Shown here: positions 76-27,432 of the stretch, in pieces
Layout of the letters: each line of letters opens with the position of its first letter
How positions within the stretch are numbered: position 1 is the first letter of the stretch
Virus record (IMG/VR): IMGVR_UViG_3300013004_000034
DNA length: 64,000 nt
From: a virus
Taxonomy: Duplodnaviria > Heunggongvirae > Uroviricota > Caudoviricetes
Reading direction: 5' to 3' (one strand)
Notes under the pieces: generated by a model
What the model was told of the DNA's origin: nothing
The model's input: the letters and a program-made list of their open reading frames with translations, nothing else
Databases searched by the model: none
Position numbers and translations under genes: made by a program

Positions 76-151
76 TGGAGCGGGTGGCCGGTAACGCTCC
101 GGTCCTGTCTAGCTTGGAAGGCTAGCGCACATCTATCTATACCACACCCGC
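76..151 (-). tRNA. non-canonical tRNA-Gly(UCC)-like
   Basis: The reverse complement gives acceptor GCGGGTG/CACCCGC with encoded CCA, anticodon arm CTAGC-CTTCCAA-GCTAG, and a 5-bp T stem. The D loop lacks GG and the T loop is AGCGTTA, so the usual T-Psi-C is absent. Confidence 0.4.
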
Positions 152-2062: not shown

Positions 2063-2111
2063 CGGTAGTTTTATTACAAATTTGTAATCTAAGATACTGT
2101 ATACAAAGCGG

Positions 2112-2184
2112 CGAAGGTGGTAGGAGTCGAACCTTCGCCTGCGGTTTTGGAGACCGCCGTGCTACCGTAACACTTCACCGACGC
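2112..2184 (-). tRNA. tRNA-like element, possible degenerate tRNA-Trp(CCA)
   Basis: Anticodon arm GCGGT-CTCCAAA-ACCGC, D arm GTGT-TACGGTA-GCAC and T loop TTCGACT are present. The acceptor pairing is poor, and an 8-bp helix GGCGAAGG/CCTTCGCC competes with it. Confidence 0.3.
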
Positions 2185-2198
2185 AAACTATGCCTTAT

Positions 2199-3635
2199 TT
2201 AGGCATAGCGCTCATGCATGATAGTCTTCATCATAACACCCGTTGGAGTCATATCTTCCATGTCTCCTGAGAGCACGGACTTCAAGATCGAAGGGCTAAA
2301 GCCGGAGACCAAAGCAACTCCACGCTCATTGAACTTCACCGGCACATTGCTAGCTGCCATGATGTTCCAGAACACAATATTCGGAACAGTATAGCCAGCA
2401 GTTTCGTACTTACGGCGAATCATCTGCATTGCAGTATCATCAAAGCGAGTGCACTGGTCAAACTGCATGTCAGACATGATCAGCAGAGTAGCAGGCATCT
2501 CGGACTGAGGTACATCACCCTTGATTGCAACGTCAAGAATCTTCTCAAACGCAGCATGAAGATTGGTATTCATCTCCCACTTCGAAGTTACCATCTGCTG
2601 CACCTTCTGCAGGATATCACCCTTCAGATGCAAAAGCTGAGGGGAAGAAGAGAAGGTCAGGAATGTATCCTTGAACTTGCCCTTGTTCTTATCAGCACAG
2701 TACAGACCAAGGCTGACAGCTACGTCCATTGCGGTAGTCTTACCACCTGCAACACCAGCACCCATTGAGCCAGAGACGTCAACAAGAGCCAACACGTTAG
2801 CATCACCAACGTAGTTAGGCAGAGCATCCCACTGAGCCTTAACGACATCAAGTTCAGTCTTGTTATAGTCTGAACGCCAAGCGTAGTTGCTGACACCCTT
2901 CAGGACGTCATACGGATAAACTGCACCAGCGTTAACCTTTACAGTCTTGTCGCCCTTGACCAGCTTATCAACCCACTCCTTATACTTCGGAGTGTGGCGG
3001 TTGAAGGCCTTCTTATAACGGCTAGCCGCTACAGACGGAACATGAGAGAAGTTGATCTCATCCCAGTTCTTGGCACACATCTGAGTCTCAACAACCTTAG
3101 ATGCAGTGACAAGGGTCTTGCGGTACTGCTTAGGGCTCATGCCGAGCTTATTGCGCAGCTTGACAGCCATAGCACCCTTACGCGGGGTCCACTTGGCACA
3201 CAGACCATCATTGGCCATCAGTGCACGGCCGATCTTGGATGCAACAACATTCTGAATGTCTTCATCTACATCGTCCTCAAGCAGAACCAGAAGGTCATCC
3301 CAACGGCCGAGCTCAGGAGTCTTGTCAATGAGTCGAGTCAGCTCATGACCCATCAGATTCTTTGCTGCATGACGAAGAACCTTACGGTAGATCTCACGCT
3401 CACCTGCACCATTGCGGGCATCACGAGCCCAGAGTGCAATACGAGTGGCAATCTCGGCATCCTCAACAAATGCCGCCGTAAACGCAGGAATAGGATCCTG
3501 TCCACGCAGAGCGCCAATCTTGAAGAAGAGGTCTACGCATGCAGACGCGGTAGAAGCACGAGCCTTCATACCATTCTGAGTTCTGGAATCTTGGTTGATA
3601 ACGGCATTTACGAACGTATTCATCATAATCTCCAT
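2199..3635 (-). CDS. Ro60/TROVE-family protein with a C-terminal vWA (MIDAS) domain, Rsr-like
   Basis: The C-terminal ~190 aa align motif-by-motif to the Ro60 vWA domain: VDVSGSM/DVSASM, TFLTFSSSP, IMSDMQF/FTDNETF, GVALVSGFSPSILKSV/GMLDMCGFDTGALDVI. The N-terminus is alpha-helical and TROVE-like. The real start may be the internal Met at 3623. Confidence 0.65.
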   Translation of the reverse strand: MEIMMNTFVNAVINQDSRTQNGMKARASTASACVDLFFKIGALRGQDPIPAFTAAFVEDAEIATRIALWARDARNGAGEREIYRKVLRHAAKNLMGHELTRLIDKTPELGRWDDLLVLLEDDVDEDIQNVVASKIGRALMANDGLCAKWTPRKGAMAVKLRNKLGMSPKQYRKTLVTASKVVETQMCAKNWDEINFSHVPSVAASRYKKAFNRHTPKYKEWVDKLVKGDKTVKVNAGAVYPYDVLKGVSNYAWRSDYNKTELDVVKAQWDALPNYVGDANVLALVDVSGSMGAGVAGGKTTAMDVAVSLGLYCADKNKGKFKDTFLTFSSSPQLLHLKGDILQKVQQMVTSKWEMNTNLHAAFEKILDVAIKGDVPQSEMPATLLIMSDMQFDQCTRFDDTAMQMIRRKYETAGYTVPNIVFWNIMAASNVPVKFNERGVALVSGFSPSILKSVLSGDMEDMTPTGVMMKTIMHERYA

Positions 3636-3743
3636 AATGTTTAACAGGTTGGACTTGGTTGCTATATCAAAGCTTTAGATGCTGAACCCAACCTAGGGTT
3701 ATAACAGGATCGTTTTTTGCCCCCTCGGGCAGCTGCCAGGTCT

Positions 3744-3775
3744 TGGTTGGCAATGTTGGAGTCGAACCAACTAAA
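3744..3775 (-). ncRNA. isolated T-arm plus acceptor 3' strand plus CCA element (tRNA-like fragment)
   Basis: The reverse complement reads GTTGG-TTCGACT-CCAAC ATTGCCA A CCA. No matching 5' acceptor or canonical anticodon arm lies upstream. Confidence 0.3.
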
Positions 3776-3945
3776 AGGTTTTGCTGAACCGATCCTAGAA
3801 CTAATAAAGTAACAGAGTGGCTCCTACTTCTTTTTTAGCCTTGAGAAATCGAAGAACAAGGTTGTTGGTTTTGCCGAAGCTCCCCAACTGTTCTGGATGC
3901 GCTTGTAGGCGCGACGGTGTTGCTGTAACCACTCTAATATTAGAC

Positions 3946-4037
3946 AGGAAGCCTATAGTGCGGATTTGAACCGCTCCTATCGCGTTGAAGGCGATTGCTC
4001 TACCATTGAGTTAGATATGGTTTGCTGCAAGCTTCCT
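3946..4037 (-). ncRNA. tRNA-like cloverleaf module inside an extended terminal stem; candidate Y-RNA-like or pseudo-tRNA with an opal-reading UCA loop
   Basis: Contains D arm ACTC-AATGGTA-GAGC, a perfect anticodon-type arm ATCGC-CTTCAAC-GCGAT (anticodon UCA) and T arm GCGG-TTCAAAT-CCGC. There is no canonical acceptor stem. Instead a 7-bp terminal stem AGGAAGC/GCTTCCT encloses the module. Confidence 0.35.
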
Positions 4038-4159
4038 AAAACTTGTCGGGATCGTTTTGGTCCGCTAAGACTTACAGGGTTTAGCGTTTTTTGTTTGCTG
4101 AACCGATCCTAATAGTCGGGAATGAGGCTTAGTGAGTGTCTCATTCAATTTATAGGTTG

Positions 4160-4188
4160 ACTATATATCAAATTCCTTGATTTGTCAA
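4160..4188 (-). promoter_or_regulatory. sigma70-type promoter inside the ncRNA region
   Basis: Minus strand reads TTGACA, a 17-nt spacer, then TATAGT. Confidence 0.5.
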
Positions 4189-4237
4189 CCCACTTTTTAC
4201 ATCTGGAGCAGCTTTTTATGGTATAAAGCGCAAAAAT

Positions 4238-4313
4238 TGGTACCCGCTACGGGACTCGAACCCGTCCTGTAAAGATTTTAAGTCTTTTGCCTCTGCCGGT
4301 GGGCTAAGCGGGC
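4238..4313 (-). tRNA. tRNA with anticodon UAA (Leu-reading) but type-I architecture (5-nt variable loop)
   Basis: Acceptor GCCCGCT/AGCGGGT, anticodon arm AAAGA-CTTAAAA-TCTTT, T arm ACGGG-TTCGAGT-CCCGT, discriminator A, CCA encoded. Confidence 0.5.
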
Positions 4314-4314
4314 T

Positions 4315-4391
4315 TGGTAGTCACGGTCGGATTCGAACCGACACTTAACAGATTTTGAATCTGCCGCCTCTGCCAGTTGGGCTACGCGACC
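4315..4391 (-). tRNA. tRNA with anticodon CAA (Leu-reading), type-I architecture; paralog of 4238..4313
   Basis: Acceptor GGTCGCG/CGTGACT with two GU pairs, anticodon arm GCAGA-TTCAAAA-TCTGT, T arm GTCGG-TTCGAAT-CCGAC, discriminator A, CCA encoded. It shares the D-arm sequence GCCC..GGCAGAGG with its neighbour. Confidence 0.45.
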
Positions 4392-4399
4392 ATATTTCC

Positions 4400-4873
4400 T
4401 TATAGAGTATTTATATCATATATGTAGTTGTCTGTCAACTCATTTTCGCAAAAAAGTTTGGCACCGTTAGTAAGATGGAACTTACGAGCCATGGCAGTCT
4501 TAGGGCTGAGAGTACAGGCTACTTTAGTATACGGTCTTGTTGCTTTGATGTGCCGCAGTGTCTTGTTTAAGACTTCGCGTCCAGCTCCTGAAACATTGCT
4601 CCAGACCGTGTAAAAGCATGCTACATTTTGACGCGAGACGTCTACAAAGAGATCATCTTCAATTGTAGGAATATCATCTAGATAAGCAACGCATGTAACT
4701 GCACGCACAAAATAATTTTCGCTGAGCAAAAAGTACTCACGATTATGAGCCACTCTTTGCCATGCTGGGATATGAGGTCTGACAGGATCACCTATCAAAC
4801 ACCCTTCCCAGCAAGATCTAAAGTCACGTACTACAGTCAGTTGATGCATTGGCGGTTTCCGTTCTAAACACAT
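4400..4873 (-). CDS. hypothetical protein (weak GNAT-like pattern)
   Basis: 157-aa ORF. The pattern VSGAGREV ... ARKFHLTNGAKL is loosely acetyltransferase-like. Confidence 0.3.
   Translation of the reverse strand: MCLERKPPMHQLTVVRDFRSCWEGCLIGDPVRPHIPAWQRVAHNREYFLLSENYFVRAVTCVAYLDDIPTIEDDLFVDVSRQNVACFYTVWSNVSGAGREVLNKTLRHIKATRPYTKVACTLSPKTAMARKFHLTNGAKLFCENELTDNYIYDINTL
4410..4438 (-). promoter_or_regulatory. sigma70-type promoter driving the tRNA/ncRNA/Ro60 transcription unit
   Basis: Minus strand reads TTGACA-17-TATAAA, about 20 nt upstream of the first tRNA. Confidence 0.5.
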
Positions 4874-5123
4874 TCTCTGATGTATCTATCGGTTCTCCAC
4901 CAAAGAACTTAATGACTATACGAAGTGCACTGGCATAATTCTCATAATGAGTAATAGTGTCGATGTGATGCTGTGCATCCTCACAGCTCTTATCCATTAC
5001 AGCAATGGACTCAAATTCTAGAACTGACGTACAGGCATCGAGTGCTGCCTGACAATGCTTGACTACAATTTCGTCAAGTTGCTCATCATCTACCTTTACG
5101 TAGAGGTTTCCATTAATTTCCAT
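4824..5123 (-). CDS. hypothetical protein
   Basis: 99-aa ORF in the operon context. Confidence 0.3.
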   Translation of the reverse strand: MEINGNLYVKVDDEQLDEIVVKHCQAALDACTSVLEFESIAVMDKSCEDAQHHIDTITHYENYASALRIVIKFFGGEPIDTSENVFRTETANASTDCST

Positions 5124-5336: not shown

Positions 5337-6368
5337 TCACTCCTCGTTCTTCAGTAGCCAGCGATTACTAATAATCTTGAAGCTAGTGTCATTAGCCATA
5401 TTCTTGTACACCATTCCTTCGCGAGGCGGCTTCTTACCAATTAGAGACTGGCCATCGGCCGATGCAATTAGTGCATTAACGTCAGAAGTGCCAGTCGTTC
5501 CGGTAGCAAGCACAGGAACATGATTGAAGGCAAAGGCCTTGCAAAACTTACGGCGCTCATCGGGAGTCAGGTAGCAAGACTTGTTGATATCCCAGACATC
5601 AAAGACAAAGAAGTCGGTGGCATCAAGACCATACTTATTGCCCTGAATACCAGGGCCAATCAGCTCGCCCTGCAGAGCAAAACCTGCAGGAAGGCGCTGG
5701 TCGATATCTTCACGACGAACAGCCTGCCAGAATGCATTGCCTTCGGTCTCTTCCAGATCATAGTTACGAGAGCAGACACCGGTCACATCATTGTGCCGAT
5801 AAACCGTCATCGAAGAGCCATCAAGCTTCTCGGTAACTTCCCACCGAGCGCCTTCCTCTTCCCAACGACGGATGTCCTTAGTAAGATTCTGAACGCGTTC
5901 CTGATCAGTCTTGCGCAGGAAGCTAGGGAAATTACCCTTGACTACACCGGCAAGAGAACCATGAATGGGCTTTTCGTACTTCTGAATCTGAAGATACTCG
6001 GTCAGATCATCACCCTCTACAAGATAGTCAATATCACAAATGTACGAGTTGGAATCCCGTTCATCAAATGTGGCTACAGCAGACACCGGGAGCAGAAGTC
6101 CCTGGCTGATCTGCTTACAAAGCTTAATTGTTCGCAGACGTTCACCCTCAACTCCGTTGTACGTACGGCCACGGTTCAGGAAAGGCGCAATAGCCTTTGG
6201 AATCCAAGAGTCAATCTCAAAGTACACAGCCAGATCACCGACCTGGAAGTCGCCCTTCTTGACTACAACCTTCCATCCGTCAACCGTAGCTACGTCAATA
6301 GCATCAGCATCAGGGATGGGCTGAATGTCCGCAACGCGACGGACGGTAGCAAGCTTACGATCAGACAT
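5337..6368 (-). CDS. ATP-dependent RNA ligase-like nucleotidyltransferase with an N-terminal OB / tRNA-binding-like domain
   Basis: Covalent nucleotidyltransferase motifs are present: I TEKLDGSS, IV EGMVYK, V FKIISNRWLLK. The N-terminus (ADIQPIPDADAIDVATVDGWKVVVKKGDFQVGDLAVYFE) resembles a Trbp111/EMAP-type tRNA-binding fold. A promoter lies at 6394..6422. Confidence 0.55.
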   Translation of the reverse strand: MSDRKLATVRRVADIQPIPDADAIDVATVDGWKVVVKKGDFQVGDLAVYFEIDSWIPKAIAPFLNRGRTYNGVEGERLRTIKLCKQISQGLLLPVSAVATFDERDSNSYICDIDYLVEGDDLTEYLQIQKYEKPIHGSLAGVVKGNFPSFLRKTDQERVQNLTKDIRRWEEEGARWEVTEKLDGSSMTVYRHNDVTGVCSRNYDLEETEGNAFWQAVRREDIDQRLPAGFALQGELIGPGIQGNKYGLDATDFFVFDVWDINKSCYLTPDERRKFCKAFAFNHVPVLATGTTGTSDVNALIASADGQSLIGKKPPREGMVYKNMANDTSFKIISNRWLLKNEE

Positions 6369-9335: not shown

Positions 9336-9624
9336 CACTAGTTTTGTAACAGATTGTAACCGTCATTCCAGGTCCATAGGGCTAGAGAACGGTAAAGAAT
9401 AAAAACTTAATTAGATCAATGGTTTAGCCAAACTCATCGCTATAGTAAAACCTAATTAAATCAATGGTTTAGTCAAGAAGTTCAGCTACCAACGATCTAA
9501 GTTGCTCTAATGGTAAGTAAACCCACTAAGGTTGCTTAGATCGCTGGTAGCTGATTGCAAAAAAGTTCAAAAAGTTTGTCCAATAAGCTCAATGTGTTAG
9601 ATCTAAGTTGTTGATCTAATTGGG

Positions 9625-9653
9625 TTGACAAACATCCTAGGATCGGTTATAAT
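9625..9653 (+). promoter_or_regulatory. consensus promoter TTGACA-17-TATAAT plus the shared leader CCACTCATCAACCAAGGGA
   Basis: Plus strand. This is the first of three near-identical promoter-leader cassettes. Confidence 0.65.
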
Positions 9654-9680
9654 CCACTCATCAACCAAGGGATTGCCCAC

Positions 9681-25989: not shown

Positions 25990-27432
25990 CTATATGTCTA
26001 TGTTATAGACTTTATACCTGAATTTTTCACTATTGTAAATCTTTATCCTTGCCACAAAGTGGAGAAGTGTATGATTTTTGGATGACTTCCACGATAAGTC
26101 ATCAGCAATATCGTATAGAGTGGCAGTAGACTTTGTATCCGAAGTACGAAGCCCTCTACCGATAGACTGTAGATTCCGAATCCTGGACTTTGACGGACTG
26201 GCAAATACTACATTTGAGAGATTCTTGATGTTGATACCTGTCGAGCTAGTACCGTATGATGCCACAATGATAGCATCTGTTTCGGACTCGATGATGTGTC
26301 TAATCTCTTCTCTCTTGTTGCCATCCACTTCACCAGAGATGAAGAATACCCTGCGTTCGATAGCATCTTTAGCTATCATGTCGTGAAGTACTTTCCCGTG
26401 CTTTTCTACATACTGAAAGAGCAGTAGCGTATTGCCTTTGAGAGATAGAGCAAGGTTCTTGATGAACTTATTCCTAGCTTCAGATCTAACAAGAAAGTCC
26501 ATCTCAGCTTGGTATTCAGCCTTGCACATGGTTTTTCTTGTGACTTCTGGATACTTCAAGAGTAGCGCTTTGATTGTAAGTTCTGCTAAGTGCTTTTGTT
26601 CCATCAAGTCGGCGGTGGTAGTTACCTTCTTGACTGCACCGAATAGACCTTCTAGAACAAGCTTATGGGTTTGAGTACCATCAAGAGTTCCAGTAAATCC
26701 AAATCTATGCTTACAAGTATCCATTGCAGATAGGATGGAAGTAAGTGACTTTGCTTTGAATAAGTGGGCTTCGTCACCTATGACTAAGTTGAATTGTTGG
26801 AACCACTTCTTCGGAAGCTTATAGATGGATTGCCATGTTGACACGACAAACGGCTTGTCGGTATCTTTTTCTTCACCTGACATGATCTTATGAACCATAC
26901 CTTTTGGTAGTCCGTAATCTTCAAAGTCAGAAGCCATCTGATGTACAAGTGAAGTTGTAGGAACAATGACGAGAGTCTTTGTTCTGTAATAGCAAGCAAG
27001 CAGATAGATGATGAGTGACTTACCGGATCCTGTAGGTGAGAGTAGAAGTGACCTACGATTTCGGACCGCATGCACAAATGCATCTATCTGATAGTCTCTT
27101 GGATAGTGCTTTGGGGCCAATTTCTTTATAAAGGCTTCGGCCTCTATTCTGGAAAATTCTGTTGCACCAAAGTCTCCATCTAGTATCAGTTCATATTCTC
27201 TGCTAGCACAGAATTGTTCTAGATGGGGTAACAAACCGGTGTATAGTAGTCTAGTCAGCTGATTGGCTAGACGTATCTTTCCATCCCATACTCTATTCTT
27301 ATAAGCAGGAGAGAACTTTGCGCCTGGTACATCAAACGTAAAAAAAGTAGAAATTTCCATCATTAAACTTGGTTCACAGTCAAGTTTCATATAAACTTCA
27401 TTGTGTTTTCTTATAATTATTCTTTCCATCAC
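25990..27432 (-). CDS. uvsW: SF2 helicase (UvsW-like)
   Basis: Walker A SPTGSGKS and motif II GDEAH, in the T4 position next to uvsY. Confidence 0.6.
   Translation of the reverse strand: MMERIIIRKHNEVYMKLDCEPSLMMEISTFFTFDVPGAKFSPAYKNRVWDGKIRLANQLTRLLYTGLLPHLEQFCASREYELILDGDFGATEFSRIEAEAFIKKLAPKHYPRDYQIDAFVHAVRNRRSLLLSPTGSGKSLIIYLLACYYRTKTLVIVPTTSLVHQMASDFEDYGLPKGMVHKIMSGEEKDTDKPFVVSTWQSIYKLPKKWFQQFNLVIGDEAHLFKAKSLTSILSAMDTCKHRFGFTGTLDGTQTHKLVLEGLFGAVKKVTTTADLMEQKHLAELTIKALLLKYPEVTRKTMCKAEYQAEMDFLVRSEARNKFIKNLALSLKGNTLLLFQYVEKHGKVLHDMIAKDAIERRVFFISGEVDGNKREEIRHIIESETDAIIVASYGTSSTGINIKNLSNVVFASPSKSRIRNLQSIGRGLRTSDTKSTATLYDIADDLSWKSSKNHTLLHFVARIKIYNSEKFRYKVYNIDI

Follow-up and report, generated by a model that had tools for sequence, protein, structure and literature searches.

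Ro60 and its Y RNAs form a conserved RNA-surveillance system that remains poorly understood. The bacterial Y RNA YrlA presents the Ro60-binding motif GNCGAAN0-1G, while the corresponding motif in metazoa is GGUCCGA (PMC4201824). For the DUF2828-type 'Ro-like' proteins of phages, Y RNA partners have only been surmised, in the three papers dealing with Bas63, CKA15 and LeBron. Here, the locus of a DUF2828-type gene was analysed in IMG/VR virus record IMGVR_UViG_3300013004_000034, a stretch of 64,000 nucleotides (nt) that is referred to in its entirety as the window, and five RNA modules (designated M1 to M5) were identified 20-490 nt upstream of this Ro60-like gene on the same strand. These modules are probably five tandem Y-RNA-like small RNAs that represent a new class and act as partners of a divergent phage Ro60 family. 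The presence of a defined, searchable RNA motif beside the gene makes the question of a Y RNA partner testable in tractable phages.

The modules follow a common plan, termed here the clamp, which reads UAG - 7-nt stem - NNN - CAGCAA ... interior ... A-rich - complementary 7 nt - GU(U). A covariance model (R1) was built from an alignment (A2) of 23 small modules of other phages, with the window held out; the seed loci had been collected on the basis of encoding homologs of the Ro60-like open reading frame (ORF). Across the whole window, on both strands and at E<=10, R1 returned exactly five matches, all on the minus strand and tiling positions 3642-4113. Module M1 (4044..4113; 35.6 bits, E=1.3e-6) carries the clamp (A)GGAUCG-GUU-CAGCAA ... 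CAAAA-CGAUCC(C), the stem of which comprises the full 7 bp in the relatives' loci L031 and L033 (GGGAUCG/CGAUCCC). The clamps of M2 (3942..4040; 26.4 bits, E=3e-4), M3 (3810..3938; 21.2 bits, E=6e-3) and M4 (3702..3799; 31 bits, E=2e-5) were identified as AGGAAGC-UUG-CAGCAA ... GCUUCCU-GU, AGAGUGG-UUA-CAGCAA ... AAGAAGUAGGAG-CCACUCU-GU and AGGAUCG-GUU-CAGCAA ... AAAAAA-CGAUCCU-GU, respectively. M5, the smallest module (3642..3697; 35.8 bits, E=1.2e-6; AGGUUGG-GUU-CAGCAU ... CCAAGU-CCAACCU-GUU), ends 12 nt before the Shine-Dalgarno sequence GGAG of the Ro60-like gene and has orthologs in L031, L033, L034, L036 and L164-L166. A previous reading of the window, made without database searches (the sequence-only reading), had distinguished four elements in this region, a count that is replaced here by two tRNAs and five paralogous clamp modules.

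The clamp also accounts for repeats that had been reported from the same region. The 18-mer TAGGATCGGTTCAGCAAA occurs exactly twice (4111-4094 and 3797-3780), with 0.05 occurrences expected and none of 100 shuffles reaching two, and a variant, UAGGUUGGGUUCAGCAUC, is located at 3697-3678. The repetition of GGATCGGTTCAGCAAA is real, but its copies are not separate elements, as they constitute the 5' clamp halves of M1 and M4. The stretch at 3681..3716, which had been described as related to this repeat, is indeed present and corresponds to the junction of the M4 3' end (CGAUCCU GUUAUAA) and the start of M5 (CCCUAGGUUGG). A further link, to a partial motif at 9624, did not hold: CTAGGATCGGTT, at about 9637-9648, lies in the spacer of a plus-strand promoter, is not accompanied by CAGCAA or an R1 match, and is treated as a coincidence. 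The promoter in question is a perfect TTGACA-N17-TATAAT at 9626-9654 (+).

Pairing of the clamp stem is retained among phages with different stem sequences, at least 16 of which occur among the clamps. In the A2 seed alignment, six of the seven stem pairs are changed on both strands, and a single position shows up to five pair types, although these counts overstate the pairing because the R1 seeds were picked for perfect pairing. A less circular test was anchored by sequence only, using the loose pattern [GT]T.C[ACT]GCA in 30 loci; a perfect 7-bp partner followed by GT was present within 330 nt of 37 of the 117 anchors, compared with two for a shifted 7-mer control. Moreover, all R1 matches in the 30 loci (60/60) are on the strand of the gene. 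As in Y RNAs, the 5' and 3' ends of the clamp modules are paired beside an internal loop, with variable modules beyond, and it is considered almost certain that the clamp RNA family and its structure are real. A candidate pseudoknot between CAGC and the 3' GUUG was rejected by reasoning, as the linker of 3 nt could not bridge the coaxial helix and no covariation links the 3' GUN to CAGC.

The association between clamp modules and the DUF2828-type protein family was observed both from the gene and from the motif. Among 30 gene-bearing loci, 26 contain an R1 match beside the gene at E<=0.01, and in the remaining four a module was recovered by a simpler pairing search. In most IMG/VR loci with enough upstream sequence, GGTTCAGCAA is located 130-210 nt upstream of the gene, although the encoded proteins are only 51-63% identical. 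When the pattern TAGGNNNGGTTCAGCAA was searched in IMG/VR, 85 sites were obtained; for 31 of these, the gene starts on the same strand no more than 3 kb further downstream, the usual distance being 140-500 nt. A paired partner is present at every site within gene-bearing loci (34/34), and 23 of the 85 sites have neither gene nor partner and look like chance matches. Among deposited phages, modules flank the DUF2828-type genes of Synechococcus phage BUCT-ZZ01, Stenotrophomonas phage DLP_6, Cronobacter phage S13, Felixounavirus AYO145A, Listeria phages LP-064 and cka16, mycobacteriophages Snenia and DirkDirk, Staphylococcus phage BE22, Bacillus phage FADO, Campylobacter phage CPX and Enterococcus phage EF5. 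The hosts of phages with both module and gene thus encompass Cyanobacteria, Gammaproteobacteria, Campylobacterota, Firmicutes and Actinobacteria. In the record of Staphylococcus phage vB_SepS_BE22, an annotated coding sequence of 29 amino acids (L173 4528-4617) coincides with an R1 match (4538-4606, E=3e-5) and is probably a misannotated RNA gene.

A Pfam search of the kind applied to the Ro60-like protein of the window assigned TROVE and vWA_Ro60 domains to gp220 of phage Bxz1, and the 46-kb stretch of this single TROVE-type locus yielded no R1 match, despite a YrlA-like, tRNA-like core near the gene (32.5 bits with the YrlA model). In Snenia and DirkDirk, three modules are located downstream of the DUF2828-type gene and end at a terminator. 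The middle module is a full-length match to Rfam YrlA at 39 bits (gathering score 69; E ~2e-5), and this YrlA-like mimic is placed inside a CAGCAA clamp whose stem covaries (UGGACCC/GGGUCCA versus UGGACUC/GAGUCCA). CAGCAA clamps go with DUF2828-type genes, and the TROVE-type phage locus is without a clamp.

Evidence of expression is indirect and comes from Listeria phage CKA15, where three very highly transcribed non-coding regions are situated within 2 kb upstream of the homolog (PMC12282133). In cka16 and LP-064, which are collinear with CKA15, three promoter-led non-coding stretches occupy this position; one is a ROOL RNA, and the stretch nearest to the gene is a three-module array (L167 3168-3436 in LP-064) with its own TTGACA-N17-TATCAT promoter. 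In LP-064, the ROOL RNA (L167 1977-2528), a full-length match to RF03087 (87.4 bits against a gathering score of 99.1; E=2e-16), precedes the Ro60-like gene by ~1 kb. Its CKA15 counterpart, judged by collinearity with cka16, is the stretch at 26,236-26,727, the most transcribed 'non-coding' region of that phage, which had been left without an identity (PMC12282133).

The interiors enclosed by the clamps differ from one another, and two of them are tRNA-like. In M2, the clamp pairs AGGAAGC (4037-4031) with GCUUCCU (3952-3946) and encloses, in natural tRNA order, a D arm (4011-3997) that shows the GG of a D loop, an anticodon-like arm (3995-3979) with a 5-bp stem and a 7-nt loop, and a T arm (3974-3960) with a 4-bp stem and a UUCAAAU loop. 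ARAGORN labels this core as a 70-nt 'tRNA-SeC(tca)' (3951-4020), and the Rfam tRNA model matches with positions 8-63 only, i.e. the D, anticodon and T arms (35.6 bits). These results, together with the pairing, agree with the earlier description of a cloverleaf at 3946..4037 that lacks an acceptor stem and is closed by AGGAAGC/GCTTCCT. Two compensatory changes were observed in the anticodon-like stem among six orthologs, while the 'anticodon' varies between UCA, UUA and UAA in close relatives, i.e. without the decoding constraint of a tRNA. No pairing between the stretches on either side of the core is conserved among the six orthologs, and the 7-bp acceptor stem of a tRNA, with its 3' discriminator and CCA end, is missing; a short acceptor-like helix (CCAUAUC/CUAUAG) was dismissed, as it is not conserved in these orthologs. 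M2 is therefore a tRNA body whose acceptor position is taken by the clamp.

M4 exhibits a different arrangement. The stretch at 3744-3775 (GUUGGUUCGACUCCAAC AUUGCCA ACCA) had been read as an isolated fragment of T arm, acceptor and CCA; these parts are present, but they form the 5' portion of a larger folded unit with seven covarying pairs. The T arm (3771-3755; GUUGG UUCGACU CCAAC) is abutted without spacer by an acceptor-like hairpin of 7 bp (3754-3733), the loop of which contains ACCA. A D-like hairpin, likewise marked by its loop (GG), is located at 3731-3718. From six M4 orthologs, RNAalifold predicted all four helices unaided, five of the seven compensatory pairs being located in the acceptor-like hairpin, which occurs in the variants AUUGCCA, AUUGUUC, AUCAUCC and AUCGCCA and the loop of which begins with ACCA in four of the six. 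The order that characterizes YrlA (T arm, acceptor-like stem-loop, D arm) was found in M4 only, M1, M3 and M5 being without such a domain. On the predicted fold, M4 is a permuted tRNA mimic in which the clamp occupies the anticodon position, as in the YrlA arrangement.

The interior of M3 consists of three hairpins, one of which is T-loop-like (CCUUG-UUCUUCGAUUUCU-CAAGG, 3861-3839). Its T-loop-like loop UUUCGAUUUCU and an AAAAAGUAGRA stretch before the 3' stem are conserved, and in most relatives the main module upstream of the gene is orthologous to M3. M1 and M5 are small, with M1 enclosing a hairpin (CGCUAA...UUAGCG) at 4086-4063. Many small clamp modules of other phages enclose a hairpin that resembles an anticodon stem-loop, with a 5-6-bp stem and a 7-nt CU-NNN-AA loop (e.g. 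CUUGUAA, CUGAUAA, CUGAAAA, CUUUCAA and CUGCUAA). Such modules are located at L001 604-661, L002 1045-1106, L006 1744-1803, L008 2931-2984, L039 2201-2267, L040 2349-2409 and L169 4683-4744.

Clamp modules also occur within tRNA arrays. In Felix O1/Bas63, four modules are situated among the tRNAs downstream of gp130. Of the well-formed modules found in stretches without a DUF2828 gene, all 20 that were examined are inside arrays of 5-36 tRNA genes on the same strand, and most array modules are separated by 5-12 nt from a neighbouring tRNA, as if filling a tRNA slot. This geometry would imply release by the tRNA-processing machinery, and it is mainly for this reason that the modules are thought to be separate RNAs and not only a leader. 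A third context was observed in BUCT-ZZ01 (L040 4092-4205 and 4221-4340) and S13 (L042 4396-4516 and 4526-4638), which encode complete tRNA-shaped RNAs. These possess acceptor stem, D arm and T arm, and an insert of 35-60 nt follows the D arm. In the insert, the clamp is circularly permuted and capped by a loop (stem', G, loop, AG-stem, NNN, (U)CAGCA), as exemplified by ...AAAACG CAAACU GACA AGUUUG UAU UCAGCA.... The S13 record annotates its two RNAs as a 121-nt tRNA-Ser and a 113-nt tRNA-OTHER, and ARAGORN calls none of the four. The clamp appears to be an autonomous unit kept in three connectivities, which fits a protein-recognition element. With tRNA-like cores in three connectivities around one clamp, the family provides a clear natural case of modular RNA design, and annotations that now list module DNA as tiny ORFs or odd 'tRNAs' of 113-121 nt could be corrected.

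The Ro60-like gene (2199..3635, minus strand; Pfam DUF2828 and DUF7788) encodes a protein of 474-478 amino acids, in which a helical N-terminal domain precedes a vWA domain that bears the MIDAS motif DxSxS, i.e. the architecture of the Ro60 family. Its longest ORF starts with the ATG at 3635 (MEIMMNTF), while the ATG at 3623 (MNTF..., 474 amino acids) is the likely true start, owing to the GGAG at 3633-3630 and the 474-amino-acid relatives. Pfam detected no TROVE domain in the protein, and a phmmer comparison with solved Ro60 chains produced no Ro60 chain at E<=10; its remote homology to Ro60 rests on fold comparison. The neighbouring gene, which had been called a Ro60 gene in the sequence-only reading, is on this comparison a remote structural homolog of Ro60 and not a TROVE-domain ortholog. 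DUF2828-type 'Ro-like' proteins are encoded by at least 705 deposited phage genomes, including those of Felix O1-like, P100/A511-like, Staphylococcus, Campylobacter and mycobacterial phages. Among its homologs, gp130 of Bas63 counters the ppl defence and gp53 of LeBron is toxic if overexpressed, while the Listeria homolog CKA15_055 was detected in purified virions by mass spectrometry (20 peptides, 57% coverage; PMC12282133). The CKA15_055 gene is located outside the structural module, and the Ro60-like protein may be packaged in the virion. A literature search on DUF2828 returned nothing relevant.

Genes for a major head protein of the gp23 type, a portal protein and a tail sheath assign the window to a T4-like myovirus. 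Among deposited phages, megablast of positions 2100-4900 revealed no close relative, giving only a 50-nt tRNA match; metagenomic relatives exist, with protein identities of 69-98%. All features of interest (tRNAs, modules and Ro60-like gene) are on the minus strand, in the order promoter-like site P1, tRNA-Leu(CAA), tRNA-Leu(UAA), promoter-like site P2, leader hairpin, M1-M5, Ro60-like gene and tRNA-Trp. P2 (4160..4188), a sigma-70-type TTGACA-N17-TATAGT, scored 11/12 in a consensus scan. The same site had been proposed to give the element at 3946..4037 its own transcript; the site was retained, whereas its position upstream of all five modules and of the Ro60-like gene argues against such a dedicated transcript. 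Downstream of P2, and before M1, lies the leader hairpin GAAUGAG...CUCAUUC (4120..4146), which was obtained by RNAfold of the whole leader; approximately 470 nt between P2 and the Ro60-like gene are non-coding. P1 (4407..4438; TTGACA-N17-TATAAA, preceded by TGA) was read from the sequence upstream of the two tRNA-Leu genes and is weak; it is absent from the consensus-scan list, the last base of its -10 hexamer being A. An RNA ligase gene (5337..6368, minus strand; PHA02142 OB-fold and RNA_ligase by Pfam, PHROG 968) is located ~0.9 kb upstream and is also a neighbour in L031 and L033. The tRNA-Trp gene (2110..2182, minus strand; ARAGORN) begins 17 nt past the stop codon of the Ro60-like gene and is kept in relatives. 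At the edge of the tRNA cluster, a borderline Rfam tRNA match at 79-151 (-), with 30.7 bits compared with a gathering score of 29 and no ARAGORN call, may represent another degenerate or unusual tRNA-like gene.

ARAGORN and Rfam agree with the sequence-only reading on two paralogous tRNAs with CAA and UAA anticodons. The tRNA-Leu(CAA) gene (4315..4391, minus strand; 77 nt; Rfam tRNA 57.4 bits, model positions 1-71) has orthologs in relatives, and its paralog, the tRNA-Leu(UAA) gene (4238..4313, minus strand; 76 nt), matches the full Rfam model at 52.1 bits. Both have a 7-bp acceptor stem, the discriminator A73 and an encoded CCA. The long variable arm of bacterial class II tRNA-Leu is absent from both, their variable loop comprising 4-5 nt, and an unusual D arm, UAGCCCAACUGGCAGAGGC, is common to the phage tRNA-Leu genes of the window and its relatives. 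The tRNA-Leu genes of relatives (L001, L003, L006, L031, L034, L039 and L164) similarly encode tRNAs of 76-78 nt with a short variable loop, the UAG anticodon also being represented. Near the locus, several relatives carry tRNAs with the amber-reading anticodon CUA (L025 130-204, L033 1329-1403, L037 1650-1721, L038 1548-1619, L165 32-107 and L166 20-95), which ARAGORN labels 'tRNA-Pyl' and which may be suppressor tRNAs. Derivation of these from the tRNA-Leu pair was rejected, since alignment places them in a separate lineage.

In the proposed explanation, P2 would drive the synthesis of a single precursor comprising the leader, M1-M5, the ORF and tRNA-Trp, from which the modules would be freed at AU-rich linkers of 3-17 nt and by processing of the flanking tRNAs. 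The DUF2828-type Ro60 homolog would then bind the clamp, by analogy with Ro60, whose main contact with Y RNAs is a conserved motif on the 5' strand of their terminal stem. It is fairly likely that the clamp RNA is the cognate partner of the protein. The tRNA-like, variable interiors could serve as effector modules that recruit tRNA-recognising factors, and M5, beside the Shine-Dalgarno sequence, may let the protein repress its own translation. The resulting particle might act in RNA/tRNA surveillance, repair or counter-defence during infection, a role that is suggested by the neighbouring genes (RNA ligase and tRNA genes in the window, RtcB and an HD phosphohydrolase in Listeria phages, Pnk and a ligase in LeBron), by analogy with the Salmonella rsr-yrlBA-rtcBA operon and by the anti-ppl report on Bas63 gp130. 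Function of the ribonucleoprotein in repair or counter-defence is proposed tentatively, as one possibility. It is also conceivable, if unlikely, that the clamp is a portable handle by which one Ro60-like protein displays a library of tRNA parts, i.e. anticodon stem-loops, the acceptor/T minihelix and D arm of M4, the D/anticodon/T body of M2, and the whole tRNA-shaped RNAs of BUCT-ZZ01 and S13. If so, the particles would decoy or sense the tRNA-targeting nucleases of host immunity, or would pass damaged tRNAs to the phage RNA ligase. Large phages would then possess a dedicated RNA-based counter-defence, perhaps delivered with the virion, in which the Listeria homolog was found.

Several observations weigh against the modules being Y-RNA-like partners of the Ro60-like protein. 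The clamp motif, invariant as CAGCAA (CAGCAU in M5), matches neither of the known Ro60-binding motifs, and Rfam searches of positions 3500-4600 at gathering scores and at E<=10 detected neither YrlA (RF02553) nor Y_RNA. Linkage to the gene at short range is not obligatory, as stretches that lack a DUF2828 gene contain at least 28 well-formed modules, and no module was found up to 3 kb from the gene in Vibrio phage nt-1 and Acinetobacter phage ME3, which encode DUF2828 proteins. The selection of R1 seeds for pairing and the restriction of the TROVE-type negative control to one locus (Bxz1) belong to the same side of the balance. In addition, the scan found no terminator-like site between position 4160 of P2 and the Ro60-like ORF, so the array could be only a 5' leader here. 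An array acting purely in cis, with modules as operators or stability elements for translation or decay, would be in line with this continuity, with the 12 nt that separate M5 from GGAG, with the single module of Stenotrophomonas phage DLP_6 that runs straight into GGAG, and with a last element at most 40 nt from the start codon in most IMG/VR loci. However, modules are located downstream of the gene in Felixounavirus, BE22, S13 and the mycobacteriophages (with their own terminator in the latter) and within tRNA arrays, 5-12 nt from tRNAs, in stretches without the gene, and five paralogs with tRNA-like interiors exceed the needs of a translational operator. A purely cis-acting array is therefore considered improbable, while a partial role of this kind for M5 is compatible with modules that are Y-RNA-like partners.

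The modules might instead be genuine small RNAs of tRNA arrays whose partner is not the Ro60-like protein, such as decoys, guides or substrates of tRNA-processing or tRNA-targeting enzymes, in which case their position beside the gene would reflect only the gene's own home in a tRNA region. The DUF2828 gene is usually embedded among tRNAs, many modules lie in tRNA arrays away from it, and several small modules contain hairpins resembling anticodon stem-loops. Nevertheless, the tight directional spacing (140-500 nt upstream, same strand) recurs in phages of five bacterial phyla with otherwise unrelated tRNA regions, Snenia and DirkDirk have modules beside the gene without a tRNA array there, and the Bxz1 stretch has tRNAs yet no module, which leaves this explanation a small chance. 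Decaying tRNA genes, spacer remnants or DNA repeats involved in recombination or homing, without RNA function, could explain the tRNA-derived arms of M2 and M4; the region belongs to a tRNA cluster, a setting of frequent duplication and decay, and in RNAfold the advantage of the whole leader over shuffles is only modest (z = -1.77). Such an origin is strongly disfavoured and retains hardly any probability, given that compensatory changes preserve the clamp and inner helices, that R1 matches are strand-specific (60/60), that the non-tRNA motif (CAGCAA, ...GU) is conserved from Listeria to T4-like phages, and that the clamp also occurs circularly permuted inside intact tRNA-shaped RNAs. Y-RNA-like partners of the DUF2828-type protein thus remain the favoured interpretation of M1-M5.

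Compared with YrlA (PMC4201824), the modules similarly adjoin a Ro60-type gene, here a remote Ro60 homolog, on the same strand, have an end stem with a short conserved motif on its 5' strand, and show the tRNA-mimic order in M4 and in the Snenia/DirkDirk modules. They differ from YrlA in the CAGCAA motif, in a DUF2828/DUF7788 partner instead of TROVE and in falling below the Rfam score, as well as in forming tandem arrays of 3-7 modules, most of which lack a tRNA-like core, and in occupying slots in tRNA arrays. The bacterial Y RNA architecture that had been recognized beside this gene therefore holds for the tRNA-like module and terminal stem, but not for the known binding motif or the Rfam family; Infernal against Rfam, a check that had been suggested, matched tRNA and neither YrlA nor Y_RNA. 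tRNA was the sole real Rfam match in the window, without any match to ROOL or GOLLD. M2 resembles Yrn1 of Deinococcus radiodurans (PMC4201824) in its natural order of D, anticodon-like and T arms with the binding stem at the acceptor position. It has no sequence relationship to Yrn1 and carries a CAGCAA clamp, whereas Yrn1 contains both strands of a metazoan-type Ro60-binding helix; in M2, moreover, the D arm is full and the anticodon-like loop has the canonical 7 nt. Yrl1 and Yrl2 of Thermus phage phiLo (PMC12135203) are unlike the modules, as phiRo60 is annotated as TROVE and its RNAs were identified by the CGAA motif.

With respect to gene content, the locus resembles Salmonella rsr-yrlBA-rtcBA (PMC7790460), which likewise combines a Ro60-type protein with tRNA-like Y RNAs and an RNA ligase, and in Listeria phage LP-064 an RtcB gene is located 1.3 kb downstream. 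Unlike the Salmonella operon, it is a phage locus with sigma-70-type promoters, without RtcR, with an Rnl-type ligase and inside a tRNA gene cluster. As non-tRNA structured RNAs in or beside phage tRNA clusters, the modules are comparable to T4 rnaC/rnaD (species 1 and 2) and to ROOL. T4 rnaC/rnaD were rejected as members of the clamp family, as the T4 tRNA region gave no R1 match at E<=10, and ROOL (RF03087, ~570 nt) is a separate element, situated 1 kb upstream of the modules in Listeria phages. The clamp motif was not found in Rfam 15 or in the searchable literature, while YrlA-like RNAs of cluster L mycobacteriophages are possibly included in the phage list of Chen 2014. Judged from sequence and predicted folding, M1-M5 appear Y-RNA-like in function and architecture without the defining features of YrlA, and M2 lacks those of a tRNA. 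The Y-RNA kind itself is known; what would be new here is a distinct class of Y RNA that serves a divergent phage Ro60 family.

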